This document shows, one piece after another, positions 3,422-37,231 of a stretch of 64,000 bases of DNA. A model generated the notes under the pieces. The model did not search any database and was not told where the DNA came from. It was given only the letters and a program-made list of their open reading frames with translations. This DNA comes from Candidatus Colwellbacteria bacterium (lineage in GTDB: Bacteria; Patescibacteriota; Minisyncoccia; UBA6257; Colwellbacteraceae): the NCBI GenBank assembly GCA_016176525.1, contig JACOWZ010000003.1, forward strand, positions 385,000 through 448,999. The letters are read 5' to 3'. The position numbers were made by a program, and so were the translations under genes. The stretch's first letter is position 1; every line of letters begins with the position of its first letter.

Positions 3422-4052
3422 ATTCTTTTAGTGTTAGAGAATTGATGCGGGTGAATTTGCCGACGCGGGTGCGCTCTAGCGCAGCTAGGTAGCCGCCGAC
3501 GCCGAGCTTTGCGCCAATGTCGCGGGCAAGCGAGCGAATGTAAACACCCTTACCGGTTTTTACGCGAATTTCCAAATATGGCCACTTGTATTTAATAAGT
3601 GCAATTTTTTTAATTTCAACTGGCCTTGGTTTTAACGCAGGAGTCTTGCCTTTGCGGGCCAATTGGTAAGCACGCTTGCCTTTGAGTTTTATTGCGCTGT
3701 ACGCCGGCGGGGTTTGCATAATTTTATCCTCAAAGGTTTTTAGCACTTTCTTTACGGTGTTATGATTGATCATAACACCGGTCTCTTCACGCTGCATCGG
3801 GCCTTCTGCATCATCTGTTGCGCTTGTGTACCCAAGTTTTATTTTTGCGATGTATTCTTTATCTGCGGCTACCTGCTTTTCTAGTTTGCGAGTATATTTA
3901 CGGCTGATTGCGACAACAAGCACCCCCTTTGCTAAAGGGTCTAGCGTACCGGCATGTCCGATTCGGCGTTCGCCGGTTATTTTGCGGAGTTTGTTTATTA
4001 TGTCGTGCGAAGTAGGGCCAGTGGGCTTATAAATACCAAAAATACCTTCCAA
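3396..4052 (-). CDS. truB: tRNA pseudouridine(55) synthase TruB
   Basis: GHAGTLDPLAKGVL catalytic motif; QTPPAYSAIKLKGKRAYQLARKG region. Contains the in-frame 8-aa insert GVMINHNT encoded by the palindrome. Confidence 0.9.
   Translation of the reverse strand: MEGIFGIYKPTGPTSHDIINKLRKITGERRIGHAGTLDPLAKGVLVVAISRKYTRKLEKQVAADKEYIAKIKLGYTSATDDAEGPMQREETGVMINHNTVKKVLKTFEDKIMQTPPAYSAIKLKGKRAYQLARKGKTPALKPRPVEIKKIALIKYKWPYLEIRVKTGKGVYIRSLARDIGAKLGVGGYLAALERTRVGKFTRINSLTLKEFASKYDKV
3756..3779. repeat. 24-bp palindrome copy B (GGTGTTATGATTGATCATAACACC), in-frame inside truB
   Basis: Read directly. Confidence 0.9.
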
Positions 4053-10858: not shown

Positions 10859-12217
10859 ATGACTAAGGATAGCCTAAATGCTGTTGTTGGAAAGACCCCC
10901 TGGTGGCGCAGGGCCGTTTTTTATGAACTCTATGTAGATAAATTTGCTGGCAATTTTAGAGGGCTAGCCGATAAAATCTCATACTTTAAAACTTTGGGTG
11001 TAGACGCTTTGCATATTTTGCCGCACTATCCGTCTCCAATGGTAGATGATGGATATGATGTTTCAGACTACATGAATATTCGTAAAAACTTGGGCACGAT
11101 GGACGATTTTGCTTTGTTTGTAAGCCAGGCCAAAGATGCAGGAATTAAAATAATGGTTGAGTTGCCTTTTAATCACACCTCGGTGGAGCATCCGTGGTTT
11201 TTAAAAAGCAAGGAATCCAAAACTAACCCCTATCGCGATTATTATTTGTGGAGCAATACAGGCAAAGAACTTGCCGCGGCGGCTAACGCCTTCCCCGAAA
11301 TCAAGCCGAGTAATTGGGTATTTGATAAAGAAGCCGGCGCGTATTTTTTCTCAACTTTTTATCCGACGCAACCGGATCTTAATTGGGGCAATCCAGAGGT
11401 TTTGAAGGAAATACTAAAAGTAATTGATTTTTGGGTGGCAGCGGGTGTTAATGCTTTTCGGCTTGATGCGGTGTCATACTTGGCGAAGAGCGAGGGTAAG
11501 ATAAGAAATCTGCAAGAATCCCACGATATAATTAGAAAAATCAGGGATCATGTTGAGCGTAAATATGGGGATATTGCACTTTTGGGAGAAGTTCATGACA
11601 CATTGGATGTTACGCGAACATATTTTGGCGATGGTTTGGAATGCCAGCTGGTTTATAATTTTCCTCTTGCGGAAGCAATAGCGGTAAAACTTGTTTTGGG
11701 CGAGGATGAACGACTAAAAAAAATTATAAGCGATCTGTCGGCGCCAGCCGGCTCCGCTTGGGTTTCTTTTATAAGAAATCATGACGAATTGTCTTTGTCT
11801 ACACTAGATATTGAAACGCGCGAGCGGCTTTCGAATGCAATAGACCCAAAAAGGCGGTTAAGGTTCCACGGCGGTGTTTCCGCCCGACTCGCGGATATGT
11901 GTTTAAAGTCAAAACTCGGCTTCGAGGAGGCGGTGCGCACGGCATTCGGCTTATTACTTAGCCTGCCGACAGCAGCAGTAATATATTATGGCGATGAAAT
12001 AAATATGAAAAATGCCGATGGCGATGCTTATAAAGACACACGCCGTTTTGTTCGTGCAGAATTTGACTGGGAGGAAGCCGAAAAGCAAATAAAAAATCCC
12101 GCTTCTTTATTTTCGTTTATCCGCGGTAAAATCACTGAGCGTAGGATTCGCGGTAGAGAAGTTCTTGATTCTCGAATATTTGGGGATAATACCCAGATAT
12201 CATTGCGCGGCGTTTAA
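10859..12217 (+). CDS. Glycoside hydrolase family 13 (alpha-amylase family) catalytic-domain protein
   Basis: GH13 regions: ELPFNHTS, GVNAFRLDAVSYL, GEVHD, FIRNHDELSL. Confidence 0.8.
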   Translation: MTKDSLNAVVGKTPWWRRAVFYELYVDKFAGNFRGLADKISYFKTLGVDALHILPHYPSPMVDDGYDVSDYMNIRKNLGTMDDFALFVSQAKDAGIKIMVELPFNHTSVEHPWFLKSKESKTNPYRDYYLWSNTGKELAAAANAFPEIKPSNWVFDKEAGAYFFSTFYPTQPDLNWGNPEVLKEILKVIDFWVAAGVNAFRLDAVSYLAKSEGKIRNLQESHDIIRKIRDHVERKYGDIALLGEVHDTLDVTRTYFGDGLECQLVYNFPLAEAIAVKLVLGEDERLKKIISDLSAPAGSAWVSFIRNHDELSLSTLDIETRERLSNAIDPKRRLRFHGGVSARLADMCLKSKLGFEEAVRTAFGLLLSLPTAAVIYYGDEINMKNADGDAYKDTRRFVRAEFDWEEAEKQIKNPASLFSFIRGKITERRIRGREVLDSRIFGDNTQISLRGV

Positions 12218-12290
12218 AAAGCAGCGGTGCTAAAATTCTTCATATTGTCGTGGGTATTTTTATTGATGGTATAATAAAATAGCAATAAAG

Positions 12291-35142: not shown

Positions 35143-35439
35143 ATGTACGATTTGTTTTTGCAGCTTGCGCTTATGTTTTCCCTTGGAGCTATAGTTTATT
35201 TAGTAACTATTGCTGTGCCGCGCGTTAAAGGCGGCGAGGAGTCTAGTCCTGTAAACGGCATTCTTTCTAAAGTGCCGTTACACAGGGTGGATAGCGCGAT
35301 AAGTAAATATCGCGACAAGTTTTTAAGAAGGCTTAAGGTTCTAATAATGAAGGCCGACAATATTGTCGGCAAGCGGCTACAGAAAGACAAAGACAGCGAC
35401 AACTTGAAAAATGGCTCCGATTCGCCTAAATTAGAATAG
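35143..35439 (+). CDS. Small membrane protein, hypothetical
   Basis: 98 aa, N-terminal TM. Confidence 0.35.
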   Translation: MYDLFLQLALMFSLGAIVYLVTIAVPRVKGGEESSPVNGILSKVPLHRVDSAISKYRDKFLRRLKVLIMKADNIVGKRLQKDKDSDNLKNGSDSPKLE

Positions 35440-35449
35440 CTGGAAATAA

Positions 35450-35533
35450 GGGCAGATGGCGGAGTGGTCAATCGCACGACGCTGTAAACGTCGCGGCTTT
35501 ATGCCTACGCAGGTTCGAATCCTGCTCTGCCCA
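35450..35533 (+). tRNA. tRNA-Tyr (GTA), long variable arm, no encoded CCA
   Basis: Acceptor GGGCAGA/TCTGCCC, anticodon loop CTGTAAA, variable arm ~14 nt, T-arm GCAGGTTCGAATCCTGC. Confidence 0.8.
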
Positions 35534-35684
35534 CAAATCAAAAATGGATTGTCTTGCGCAATCCTATTTTTGATTTATGATGGTTAGATTAAGACAGGAT
35601 TCGAAGACCGCAGCGAAATCCGCCAGCTGGCGGATGAGCGAGGGGCGGCCTGCGAGCGCGACGAGCGACGGCGAGGAGCGACTT

Positions 35685-35709
35685 GTAGGAGAATCCTGCT
35701 CTGCCCACA
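35685..35709 (+). repeat. Direct duplicate of the tRNA-Tyr 3' end (GTAGGAGAATCCTGCTCTGCCCACA)
   Basis: 19 of 19 nt identical to tRNA-Tyr positions ~35515-35533 plus flanking similarity. Confidence 0.8.
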
Positions 35710-35740
35710 GTTCGACTCTATGGAACCGTAATATAACTCT

Positions 35741-36331
35741 ATGACCAAACGTACTAAAAAGATTATTGATTTTTTGTACGAGATCGAGAAATTCAAACTC
35801 GTTGAAAGGCGGACATATTTGTCGAATCAAAAGAGGCATGAATCTGATGCCGAGCATGAGTGGCATATGGCGATGATGATTTGGCTTTTCTCAACTGTTA
35901 TAAAGAAAAAGTTTGATGTGTTTCATGCGATGAAACTCGCACTTGTGCATGACTTGCCGGAGATTTATGCAGGGGATACGTATAGGTTCGATCCTAAAGG
36001 CAATAATACAAAGAGAGCGCGTGAGGTGAAGGCGGCTCGCAAACTCTTTGCTCAACTACCTAAAGATTTAGATAAAGAATTCTGGGCGCTCTGGGATGAG
36101 TACGAAGAAAATAAAACTTATGAGGCTAGAATTGTGCATTTCGTTGATGGAACAAATCCAGGTATTCAGAATATGGTTTCAAAAGCCAAAGCATGGAAAG
36201 AGAATAAATTAGATAGGAAAAGCGTATTCAAGAGGAGAGATGAATTGCTTCAATATATCGACAGCAAAGAACTTAAGGATTGGCTCAATTCGTTAGTTGA
36301 TGAAGCTGTAAAAAAGAAGTATCTTATTTAA
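35741..36331 (+). CDS. HD-domain phosphohydrolase (YfbR-like 5'-deoxynucleotidase)
   Basis: ESDAEHEWHMAMM...LALVHDLPEIYAGD HD motifs. Confidence 0.8.
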   Translation: MTKRTKKIIDFLYEIEKFKLVERRTYLSNQKRHESDAEHEWHMAMMIWLFSTVIKKKFDVFHAMKLALVHDLPEIYAGDTYRFDPKGNNTKRAREVKAARKLFAQLPKDLDKEFWALWDEYEENKTYEARIVHFVDGTNPGIQNMVSKAKAWKENKLDRKSVFKRRDELLQYIDSKELKDWLNSLVDEAVKKKYLI

Positions 36332-36339
36332 GTAATTTT

Positions 36340-36411
36340 GCCGCCCTAGCTCAACGGCAGAGCAACTCTTTTGTAAAGAGTAGGTTGGGGGTTCGATTCC
36401 TCTGGGCGGCT
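36340..36411 (+). tRNA. tRNA-Thr (TGT)
   Basis: Acceptor GCCGCCC/GGGCGGC, anticodon loop TTTGTAA, T-loop TTCGATT; the T-stem has two G-U pairs. Confidence 0.7.
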
Positions 36412-36415
36412 CAAA

Positions 36416-36754
36416 ATGCCAAAGCAGGAGTTAATAAATTTAGAGCCAGAGAAACCATCTATAACAAAACTTAAAGAGGCTATATTTTCTTCTCCTGAAA
36501 AAATAGAGAGCGAGCTTGCTAAGGGCGGCAATGATTGGCTTGCTTGTTTTACAACAAGAGTGCAGGTTATAGAGGCGCTTTTTGGAAGCGCAATTAATGA
36601 TTTAGACGAGAGCGAAGACACGCGTTATAAAGAAAATATAGATTCGCTCAAAAAACATTTAGAAGAAGTTAGAGGGCGCTATCCTGTAGATGAAGAAGAT
36701 CCGCCGAAATATATAAAGAGCGAGCTTTTAGGTATGCTGGATATTTTGCACTGA
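36416..36754 (+). CDS. Hypothetical protein
   Basis: 112 aa acidic ORF between two tRNA-Thr genes. Confidence 0.4.
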   Translation: MPKQELINLEPEKPSITKLKEAIFSSPEKIESELAKGGNDWLACFTTRVQVIEALFGSAINDLDESEDTRYKENIDSLKKHLEEVRGRYPVDEEDPPKYIKSELLGMLDILH

Positions 36755-36779
36755 AGCATTTAGAATGTATTTACGCTTC

Positions 36780-36852
36780 GCCAATGTAGCTCAGTCGGTA
36801 GAGCAACTCCATGGTAAGGAGTAGGTCGCCGGTTCAATTCCGGCCATTGGCT
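36780..36852 (+). tRNA. tRNA-Thr (GGT)
   Basis: Acceptor GCCAATG/CATTGGC, anticodon loop ATGGTAA, T-arm GCCGGTTCAATTCCGGC. Confidence 0.8.
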
Positions 36853-36993
36853 CAAAATACAAAAGCATATCTTTATATTGATGGCCGAATTGAACCGTGG
36901 AAAGGGGTCGGGAAAACTAGTTTTCCCGTTGCGGAAATATTAAAACCGCAGGGTTTTAAAGAGCGAGTTGCTGTATAGCGACTCGCGACGTGA

Positions 36994-37012
36994 AATTCCG
37001 ACCATTGGCTCA
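36994..37012 (+). repeat. Direct duplicate of the tRNA-Thr(GGT) 3' end (AATTCCGACCATTGGCTCA, 1 mismatch)
   Basis: Read directly; an inverted partial T-arm copy lies at ~36881-36898. Confidence 0.75.
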
Positions 37013-37057
37013 AGGTTTGCGTTTTTTGGCATTCTAGTTTAATATTTTCTAACTCTT

Positions 37058-37231
37058 ATGGCAGTTAGGAAATTATCAGAAAACTTAATAAGGCTCCGAT
37101 GTGCCACCTGTAAGCGGGTTAATTACTATACGCGTAAGAATAAGAAAAAGGTGGAGCGAAAGCTGGATTATAAAAAGTTTTGTAACTGGTGCAGAAAGAG
37201 CACTACTCACAAAGAAGTAAAACTTAAGTAG
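37058..37231 (+). CDS. rpmG: 50S ribosomal protein L33 (zinc-ribbon form)
   Basis: 57 aa, missed by the ORF track; CATCKRVNYYTRKNKKK...FCNWCRKSTTHKEVK fits the L33 C4 pattern. Confidence 0.8.
   Translation: MAVRKLSENLIRLRCATCKRVNYYTRKNKKKVERKLDYKKFCNWCRKSTTHKEVKLK

Follow-up and report, generated by a model that had tools for sequence, protein, structure and literature searches.

Small elements with direct and inverted copies of the gene 3' end behind tRNA genes of a Candidatus Colwellbacteria genome have the layout of Escherichia coli tRNA-linked repeats

In the genome of Candidatus Colwellbacteria, a CPR/Patescibacteria bacterium, the tRNA-Tyr gene is followed by a real feature whose layout is of the poorly understood tRNA-linked repeat (TLR) kind and is new to this distant phylum. 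Within the window, the whole 64-kb stretch of DNA that was analyzed, one such element lies behind tRNA-Tyr and a second behind tRNA-Thr(GGT) (Table 1). Both consist, in this order, of A (the gene 3' end), an AT-rich hairpin, A' (an inverted copy of the gene end), a GC-rich core X, and again A (the direct copy). Both begin 1 nt past the tRNA gene, as do the elements of the related loci L086, L088, L093, L094, L098, L101, and L105, and in every element the arms match the gene in front. On balance, we favor the reading that the downstream copy of the tRNA-Tyr end forms the right arm of an insertion element or trailer RNA of the TLR type, small (~175 bp) and without an integrase.

The tRNA-Tyr/tRNA-Thr region is a core housekeeping neighborhood, with the gene order trmD, rpsB, tsf, a 98-aa open reading frame (ORF), tRNA-Tyr, an HD_3 hydrolase gene, tRNA-Thr(TGT), a 112-aa ORF, tRNA-Thr(GGT), rpmG, pcm, hpf, and secA. 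ARAGORN detected five tRNA genes in the window, all of them intact, and no others. Rfam returned tRNAs only, both at the gathering threshold over the whole window and at E <= 10 over 35400-37100; at E <= 0.1-1, the related loci likewise gave tRNAs only, plus RtT in E. coli. Among relatives, the HD gene has a scattered distribution (its best match, at 72% identity, comes from a 1.2-kb contig, and the following ones are below 50%), and its synteny failed as an anchor for finding them. For Logan contigs from the same organism, three of three upstream contigs end at window position 35522, and the downstream ones begin at 36896 or 36964. These breaks may be due to a tRNA k-mer shared with a co-occurring relative, to loss of coverage at the hairpins, or to real heterogeneity.

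The repeat GAATCCTGCTCTGCCCACA has two exact occurrences in the window, the left and right copies of the Tyr element, and 0 matches in 100 dinucleotide shuffles, even with 2 mismatches allowed. The right copy runs from T-loop G57 to the discriminator plus CA and is preceded by GTAGG where the tRNA has GCAGG. A complete tRNA-Tyr gene with an exact 19-nt downstream copy and this flanking similarity, as described in the original prediction, was thus confirmed by ARAGORN, Rfam, and the shuffles. The spacer between the copies is 155 nt, and the whole element of ~175 bp is non-coding. No credible ORF was found in the 155-bp bounded segment, and the 55-aa ORFs that cross the two elements (35577-35744 and 36811-36978) have a layout that is not conserved. 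The hairpin, the 14-bp palindrome, the GCGAG/GCGAC repeats, and the raised GC content described earlier were all found. The hairpin AATCAAAAATGGATTG...CAATCCTATTTTTGATT has a terminator-like score on both strands, the palindrome CCGCCAGCTGGCGG lies at 35620-35633, and GC is 0.61-0.71 across 35580-35699 versus about 0.33-0.45 in the flanks. In addition, the core of an inverted copy, CAGGATTCGAA (35595-35605), is complementary at 11/11 positions to 35514-35524. The fold of the Tyr element is more stable than those of its shuffles (z = -4.3).

The same architecture, also foreseen, is present at tRNA-Thr(GGT), where the direct repeat has 19/20 identity between the two copies. The core of the inverted copy, GAATTGAACCG (36887-36897), is complementary at 11/11 positions to 36830-36840, the fold is again more stable than shuffles (z = -3.4), and rpmG starts 45 nt downstream of the right copy. 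The A' segment carries the CCGGCC of the functional tRNA, and the right copy carries CCGACC, the allele of the L086 tRNA.

Table 1. Features of the two elements and the genes in front of them (window positions)
Feature	Position	Strand	Support
tRNA-Tyr(GTA), complete, gene in front of the element	35450..35534	+	ARAGORN; Rfam RF00005, 61.1 bits (35450-35533)
Left copy A of the 19-nt repeat (T-loop 3' half, T-stem 3' strand, acceptor 3' strand, discriminator, CA)	35517..35535	+	
AT-flanked hairpin, terminator-like on both strands; apex of the long A/A' palindrome	35536..35575	+	
A', inverted copy of the tRNA-Tyr 3' part; portion facing the acceptor strand degenerate	35578..35607	+	
X, GC-rich core of the Tyr element; hairpin TCCGCCAGCTGGCGGA at 35619-35634, GCGAG/GCGAC repeats	35608..35690	+	
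GTAGG within X of the Tyr element, mimic of the T-stem 5' strand	35685-35689	+	
Right copy A of the 19-nt repeat; predicted pairing with A' closes the Tyr element	35691..35709	+	
tRNA-Thr(GGT), complete, precedes the second element	36780..36853	+	ARAGORN; Rfam
Left copy of the Thr(GGT) 3'-end repeat AATTCCGGCCATTGGCTCAA, CCGGCC allele	36836..36855	+	
A' of the Thr element TTGATGGCCGAATTGAACCG (inverted T-loop, T-stem 3' strand, acceptor)	36878..36897	+	
X-core of the Thr element, conserved family	36898..36993	+	Covariance model R1, 131.7 bits
X-core parts in order: GGGGUC motif, P1 (36909-36928), GCGGAA, P2 (36940-36959), variable hairpin (36961-36986), GUGAAAU			
Right copy of the Thr(GGT) 3'-end repeat AATTCCGACCATTGGCTCAA, CCGACC allele as in the L086 tRNA	36994..37013	+	

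When the tRNA was included in the fold, its 3' part was predicted to pair with A' in a single long hairpin in both elements; A, the hairpin, and A' together form one long imperfect palindrome centered on the hairpin. In MFE folds of the window Tyr element and of those in L093, L094, and L098, a helix between A' and the 3' copy closes the element, with GC-rich hairpins inside and a single-stranded acceptor tail. The closing helix is weaker in the Thr-type elements. The tRNA-sense strand gave the better fold in 6/8 CPR elements. Of the two possible partners of A', the genuine tRNA gave the stronger predicted pairing, and the 3' copy the weaker, in all nine elements measured, including those of E. 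coli. The closing-helix model accounts for this preference no better than a DNA palindrome or a fold that sequesters the tRNA would. Together with the long palindrome, the complementarity of A' to the tRNA may leave two alternatives, a target-mimicking DNA hairpin or an origin by fold-back template switching.

How closely the arms follow the gene is seen in L094 and L105, two CPR loci whose nearest named relatives are Vogelbacteria. They are close relatives, with a neighboring protein 87% identical, and their tRNA-Tyr genes differ in the T-loop (TTCGAAT versus TTCAAAT), the T-stem (CCTGC versus CCTAC), and the acceptor strand (CCTGCGC versus CCTACGC). A' changes in step with the tRNA at all three places (3/3). 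The 3' copy tracks the T-loop and T-stem, and its acceptor part retains the other allele. The cores of the two Tyr elements are unrelated, even though the hosts are close.

Relatives were gathered through EF-Ts genome and contig look-ups plus one metagenome pattern scan. In these related CPR genomes, the elements are patchily present behind tRNA-Tyr (L093, L094, L098, L101, and L105), tRNA-Thr(GGT) (L086 and L101), tRNA-Thr(TGT) (L088, where the contig end cuts the element), and rpmG (L105, the sole non-tRNA case among the CPR elements). The window, L101, and L086, the three deepest lineages of the clade, have the Thr(GGT) element at one and the same site, 45-69 nt ahead of rpmG. Empty sites, which the original prediction had proposed to look for, were found as well. 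In L085 and L003, tRNA-Tyr, tRNA-Thr(TGT), and tRNA-Thr(GGT) are close-set without an element, so that both tRNA sites of the window have empty counterparts there, and in L085 rpmG follows directly; the tRNA-Tyr site of L086 is also empty. When 73 tRNAs were scanned across 105 loci, direct plus inverted downstream copies were detected only in the CPR element loci and in E. coli tyrT/tyrV.

A conserved core is common to five elements: those behind tRNA-Thr(GGT) in the window, L086, and L101, the one behind tRNA-Thr(TGT) in L088, and the one behind tRNA-Tyr in L101. Its shared order is GGGGUC, P1, GUGGCGGA, P2, AGCGCAG, a variable hairpin, and GAGCAGUGA. The Thr(GGT) elements of the window and L086 have 78% identity, and the hosts of the conserved core have an S2+Tsf identity of only 58-64%. 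Across five sequences, P1 and P2 are 90.6% paired, with compensatory changes in 7/17 pairs; the covariation score was reached by 0/500 shuffles and collapsed when the registers were slid. A covariance model, R1, was constructed from the Thr(GGT), Thr(TGT), and L101 Tyr elements. It scored 131.7 bits at 36874-37016 in the window, on a Thr element sequence that belongs to its own training set, and recovered its own members only from 33 CPR loci. With filters off, one weak new member appeared behind the rpmG gene of L105 (E = 0.029; nhmmer E = 0.025).

The flagged Tyr element (35576-35712) gave no match to R1 at E <= 1 in the window. With filters off, the Tyr-type elements of L098, L093, and L094 reached only E = 0.1-7, and with nhmmer they did not rise above shuffled controls. 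Homology of the Tyr core to the Thr-type family was not demonstrable by the covariance model (filters on or off) or by nhmmer. The Tyr core has short motifs in common with L098, L093, and L105, such as GAGCGACGGCGA with L105. For the flagged Tyr element, the claim is one of architecture and not of a sequence family.

The copy in L105 lies behind a protein gene, and because of it the element layout is not tRNA-specific; the specificity for tRNA att sites that had been proposed is refuted by the same copy. There, the last 36 nt of rpmG are repeated at 78% identity, and about 45 nt of the gene end are inverted, with perfect inverted repeats of 13 and 14 nt and one of 18 nt at 89%. L094 provides the empty rpmG site, in which the stop codon passes straight into the terminator. 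The displaced gene end in L105 still encodes KKQTPHKEVKK followed by a stop. Of the 8 positions that separate it from the functional end, 7 are third codon positions (P = 0.0026). The A' segment carries a lineage-specific ACG codon that matches the left copy, and the A'/X junction lies at GAATT, a motif also present in the Thr-type arm. The codon pattern, from these few sites, suggests that two coding rpmG alleles may have been joined in L105, as if incoming DNA had brought its own target end.

For a small insertion element or trailer RNA of the TLR type, a plausible course can be outlined. The element would arrive and stay at a gene 3' end through recombination across the shared 3'-end segment, with an A/A' palindrome that either travels with the element or is kept in step with the gene, and the direct repeats would permit precise loss. 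Read-through of a leaky hairpin could transcribe the element on the tRNA strand, and A' would then pair with the 3' copy; the resulting helix would close the core, with a 3' strand the same as in the tRNA. By analogy with RtT and RrB of E. coli, this closing helix might act as a tRNA-like 3'-end processing site and release a discrete small RNA while leaving the tRNA unharmed. Both RtT and RrB come from a transcript that includes the upstream gene, and from it a discrete RNA is processed.

No integrase, recombinase, or transposase domain was detected among the 26 window ORFs of 180-480 aa. Three patterns were searched for in 2.9 million viral contigs; two gave no match, and the third gave one chance match inside an ORF, with no tRNA. 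Of the three options that the original prediction had offered, a tiny non-autonomous element or ncRNA fits best, in view of the empty sites and the allele junction in L105. Its interpretation as a whole is partly supported; the inverted copy and the match to the E. coli TLRs had been missed. A conserved RNA lacking empty sites was to have counted against that interpretation. Covariation was indeed found in the Thr element, but empty sites exist too.

A vertically inherited host RNA would be a rather unlikely source of the elements. It would be a tRNA-Thr/rpmG trailer or leader, for example an rpmG processing or regulatory module, with arms maintained by gene conversion and absences that reflect direct-repeat losses. 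Such an RNA would suit the Thr(GGT) element, which keeps one site upstream of rpmG in the three deepest lineages and has a core conserved with compensatory changes; 4/6 core-family copies flank rpmG, and precise deletion through the direct repeats is possible, as in L085. However, copies of the core also lie behind tRNA-Tyr (L101) and tRNA-Thr(TGT) (L088) and downstream of rpmG (L105), each with arms matched to its gene. The unrelated Tyr-element cores of the close relatives L094 and L105, as well as the displaced rpmG end with the signature of a different coding allele, are also difficult to reconcile with vertical inheritance.

The covarying core speaks against a neutral origin. In template switching at the terminator palindrome, the nascent strand would fold back, copy the gene end in inverted form, and re-prime, which would leave a functionless A-A'-(filler)-A. 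This would explain why A, the hairpin, and A' form a single imperfect palindrome centered on the hairpin and why A' is always the best match to the left copy, including the ACG codon in the L105 rpmG element, where the A'/X junction at the shared GAATT suggests microhomology. It leaves unexplained both the conserved core in elements behind different genes and the 78% identity of elements whose hosts are 58% identical in S2+Tsf. Taken together, we regard template switching as distinctly unlikely.

Very unlikely, in our estimation, is an attL/attR scar, that is, a tyrosine-integrase island that had entered the T-loop-to-3'-end att site of tRNA-Tyr and was later deleted to ~155 bp. The identity blocks of tRNA-targeting integrases start in the T-loop and run just beyond the tRNA end, and the direct repeat has the same extent. 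Relatives have empty sites, and the L105 rpmG copy joins two coding alleles in the manner of attP-borne gene ends. Of the attL/attR signature first described, the direct repeat flanking an insert and the empty sites therefore stand, but a recombinase in or beside the segment was not found among the window ORFs of 180-480 aa. Moreover, independent deletions would not repeatedly yield a layout of ~130-260 bp that includes an inverted copy, as found behind four genes and in at least seven CPR genomes, and the recurrence of equally small elements of this three-part form makes the scar of a largely deleted integrative element an unlikely option. Across deep lineages the Thr element is retained and shows covariation, the targets (two tRNA types, rpmG, and E. 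coli 5S) are too unlike for one site-specific enzyme, and no matching element was found in the 2.9 million viral contigs.

Finally, a second, degenerate tRNA-Tyr as the owner of the 3' copy, a relic of tandem duplication, is already largely refuted and extremely improbable: GTAGG-AGAAT-CCTGC ahead of the acceptor strand resembles a T-arm with a shortened loop, and the E. coli tyrT/tyrV tandem has a TLR-type unit between its genes, but the Rfam tRNA model is blank at E <= 10 in 35535-35740 and 36854-37057, ARAGORN finds no such tRNA, there is no remnant of a D-arm or anticodon arm, a relic would have no inverted copy, and a tRNA relic cannot account for the element behind rpmG.

The reading as a small insertion element or trailer RNA can be extended, in a form that we consider rather doubtful. 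TLR-type elements might constitute a cross-phylum, integrase-less mobile class that homes to highly expressed genes at their 3' ends (those for tRNA and 5S rRNA, and rpmG) and carries a target-mimicking A/A' hairpin, either brought along or re-templated. Insertion would proceed by homology-guided, single-strand (CTX-phi/attC-like), or RNA-templated recombination. If this were true, the E. coli TLRs would be members of the class, and the conserved CPR core would be the first tractable comparative handle on its mechanism. That the layout occurs in CPR bacteria too, with gene-matched arms, empty sites in close relatives, a covarying core, and one copy behind a protein gene, suggests that it reflects some general process or function acting where highly expressed genes end, and not a peculiarity of enterobacteria. 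Occupied versus empty sites, and one core with different targets, offer the comparisons that could separate selfish insertion, a processing module, and a regulatory RNA. In practice, such repeats should not be scored as prophage or island remnants in scans of tRNA att sites.

Among known systems, a group I or T-loop intron was rejected, since the core is too small, Rfam gives no match, and the tRNA is complete without splicing. In mascRNA/MALAT1 and in RNase P guide or minihelix substrates, as would be the case here, the 3' strand of a helix consists of the acceptor plus the T-stem 3' strand, followed by the discriminator; this likeness would offer tRNA-type end processing to a non-tRNA transcript. 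The CPR elements differ in having no cloverleaf or T-loop, and their A' pairs better with the genuine tRNA. The Correia/CREE, ERIC/IRU, and REP/BIME repeats are likewise small, non-coding, hairpin-forming, and patchy and occur in transcribed gene 3' regions. These bacterial MITE-like repeats each bring a fixed set of terminal inverted repeats and have short target duplications, whereas the CPR arms are copies of the neighboring gene and vary with the site.

Inverted segments about 90-100 nt apart in the CTX-phi attP and the integron attC fold into a duplex that mimics a double-stranded target, and after insertion one junction has an inverted partner beside the repeat. The likeness of the CPR elements to this type is a lead only; unlike these systems, they have no Xer- or IntI-type target and no phage or cassette genes. 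With attL/attR pairs, the window elements share a direct repeat of the tRNA 3' end that starts in the T-loop and a left copy that restores a functional gene; empty sites in relatives and, in one case, two juxtaposed gene-end alleles are further common points. They differ in an insert of only ~155 bp without integrase or cargo, in the inverted target copy, which is missing from att sites, and in targets too diverse for one site-specific recombinase.

The closest likeness is to the TLRs of E. coli, which reportedly include the RtT RNA (rttR, RF00391) and the 5S-linked RrA, RrB, and RrF and are said to go back to Egan and Landy in 1978 and Rudd in 1999. At the E. coli tyrT locus, we found 178-bp units that each end in the last 19 nt of tRNA-Tyr, and each tyrT-tyrV unit holds GGGGAAGG, antisense to the T-stem and acceptor. 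In the Rfam RtT consensus, the same helix between the antisense segment and the 3' copy closes the structure, and the acceptor tail is single-stranded. In the rrnB 5S trailer, a direct repeat of 30 nt and an inverted one of 35 nt follow the order seen in the CPR elements. [quoted passage not shown] The authors of the same work suggested that the repeat signals processing by RNase E, and they noted the retraction of an earlier claim that tied RtT to the stringent response (PMC8144298).

Measured against this description, both window elements have the position of a TLR (PMC8144298), and at the 3' end the Tyr element has 19/19 and the Thr(GGT) element 19/20 identical positions, against no chance match in shuffles. 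They lie directly behind the gene and on its strand, with a hairpin or terminator between gene and element; an antisense segment and the 3' copy are predicted to close a GC-rich, multi-hairpin core, and the size is 130-180 nt. On the other hand, there is no detectable sequence or covariance-model similarity between the window elements and the TLRs. The RtT model RF00391 (gathering threshold 45 bits) was absent from the window at gathering and from 35400-37100 at E <= 10, and therefore the likeness is one of architecture and not of family membership. It also had no match in L093 or L094 at E <= 1, in the same run in which four E. coli units scored 133-138 bits; with the window, L093, and L094 all lacking a match, the architecture could be convergent. 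Further differences are that the hosts are CPR bacteria rather than Enterobacterales, that the window elements are single and the E. coli TLRs stand in tandem arrays, that one CPR relative has its element behind a protein gene (rpmG), and that transcription and processing in CPR are putative. A literature search returned no such elements outside Enterobacterales and nothing relevant for CPR. Nearly five decades after they became known in E. coli, the TLRs lack an accepted origin or function, and the class now extends to CPR.

The HD_3 hydrolase gene that follows the Tyr element, the insert of about 175 bp behind tRNA-Tyr, was probably acquired horizontally as cargo (coordinates are given in the table). 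Its occurrence among the relatives was sporadic; the corresponding position held a TyrRS-like gene in L001 and L002, and nothing in L003, L085, and L086. The sole close homologue (72%) was located on a 1.2-kb contig (L081:150-749), where it carried an early stop codon; the end of a GIY-YIG-like ORF lay ahead of it, and tRNA-Thr(TGT) again came next.

Features of the HD_3 locus and of the nested tRNA arrangement in a relative
Feature	Position	Setting
HD_3 hydrolase gene	window 35741-36331	flanked by the Tyr element and tRNA-Thr(TGT)
Complete inner tRNA-Thr(TGT)	L003:9985-10057 (JASEIG010000008.1)	within a disrupted outer tRNA-Thr(TGT)-like gene, region L003:9945-10120

Independent Logan assemblies of this organism (L082-L084 and L090-L092), derived from three runs, all stopped at window position 35522, within the T-loop of tRNA-Tyr, and restarted at 36896 or 36964, within the Thr element, which has the same layout behind tRNA-Thr(GGT). 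The intervening 1.4 kb, comprising the Tyr element, the HD gene, tRNA-Thr(TGT), and a 112-aa ORF, was not found in these assemblies by the protein look-ups made.

Other tRNA genes were interrupted in the relatives. The nested arrangement in L003 was bounded by an 18-bp inverted repeat (TCCCCCACCATTTGCCGA / TCGGCAAATGGTGGGGGA), and the outer gene was without 11 nt of the anticodon stem-loop. This outer gene was split around the inner tRNA into a 5' part, GCCACCTTAGCTCAGTTGGTAGAG, and a 3' part, TAAAGCGAAGGTCC...GGTGGCTCC. A GIY-YIG ORF was also present about 230 nt downstream. In L086, tRNA-Thr(GGT) (12001-12268) was split after the anticodon by an insert of about 190 nt, which matched no Rfam family, group I introns included (E ≤ 0.1). 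The 5' end of this tRNA gene also contained the end of a 201-aa ORF (L086:11405-12010), for which Pfam gave no match.

Rearrangements and repeats were also observed near tRNA-Tyr and rpmG. The tRNA-Tyr of L088 (10766-10848) lies on the strand opposite to that of all other clade members, reflecting a local inversion adjoining the tRNA cluster. The rpmG-hpf spacers of L085 (1720-2180) and L086 (12700-12860) both opened with CGTTCGC, and that of L085 contained a segment of about 250 nt with ends marked by a 19-bp inverted repeat (GGAACCTATCTCATATATA / TATATATGAGATAGGTTCC). Approximately 2.4 kb away from the rpmG element, tRNA-Leu(CAA) is adjoined by a large serine recombinase (L106:5455-6455; Resolvase and Zn_ribbon_recom), probably an unrelated integrase of a prophage or island at another tRNA.

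In L105 (region 3800-3960), the tRNA-Tyr element was followed by a further antisense arm, likewise partial (TTAGGATTTGAAAGG, ~3813-3827), and then, after about 130 nt, by a terminator. The arrangement has the appearance of a second unit beginning there, either in tandem or decayed, and recalls the tyrT array of E. coli. Profile searches gave no support for homology of the window Tyr element to the tRNA-linked repeats (TLR) of E. coli, and the resemblance of its motifs could be due to chance in GC-rich sequence. The Tyr-element hairpin AAATCCGCCAGCTGGCGGAT (35619-35634) is similar to the hairpin AAATCCGCCGGGAGCGGATTT of the rrnB 5S-linked TLR (L109:341-363), and in the tyrT-tyrV spacer, as in the Tyr element, GAGGAGCGA stands before the 3' copy.
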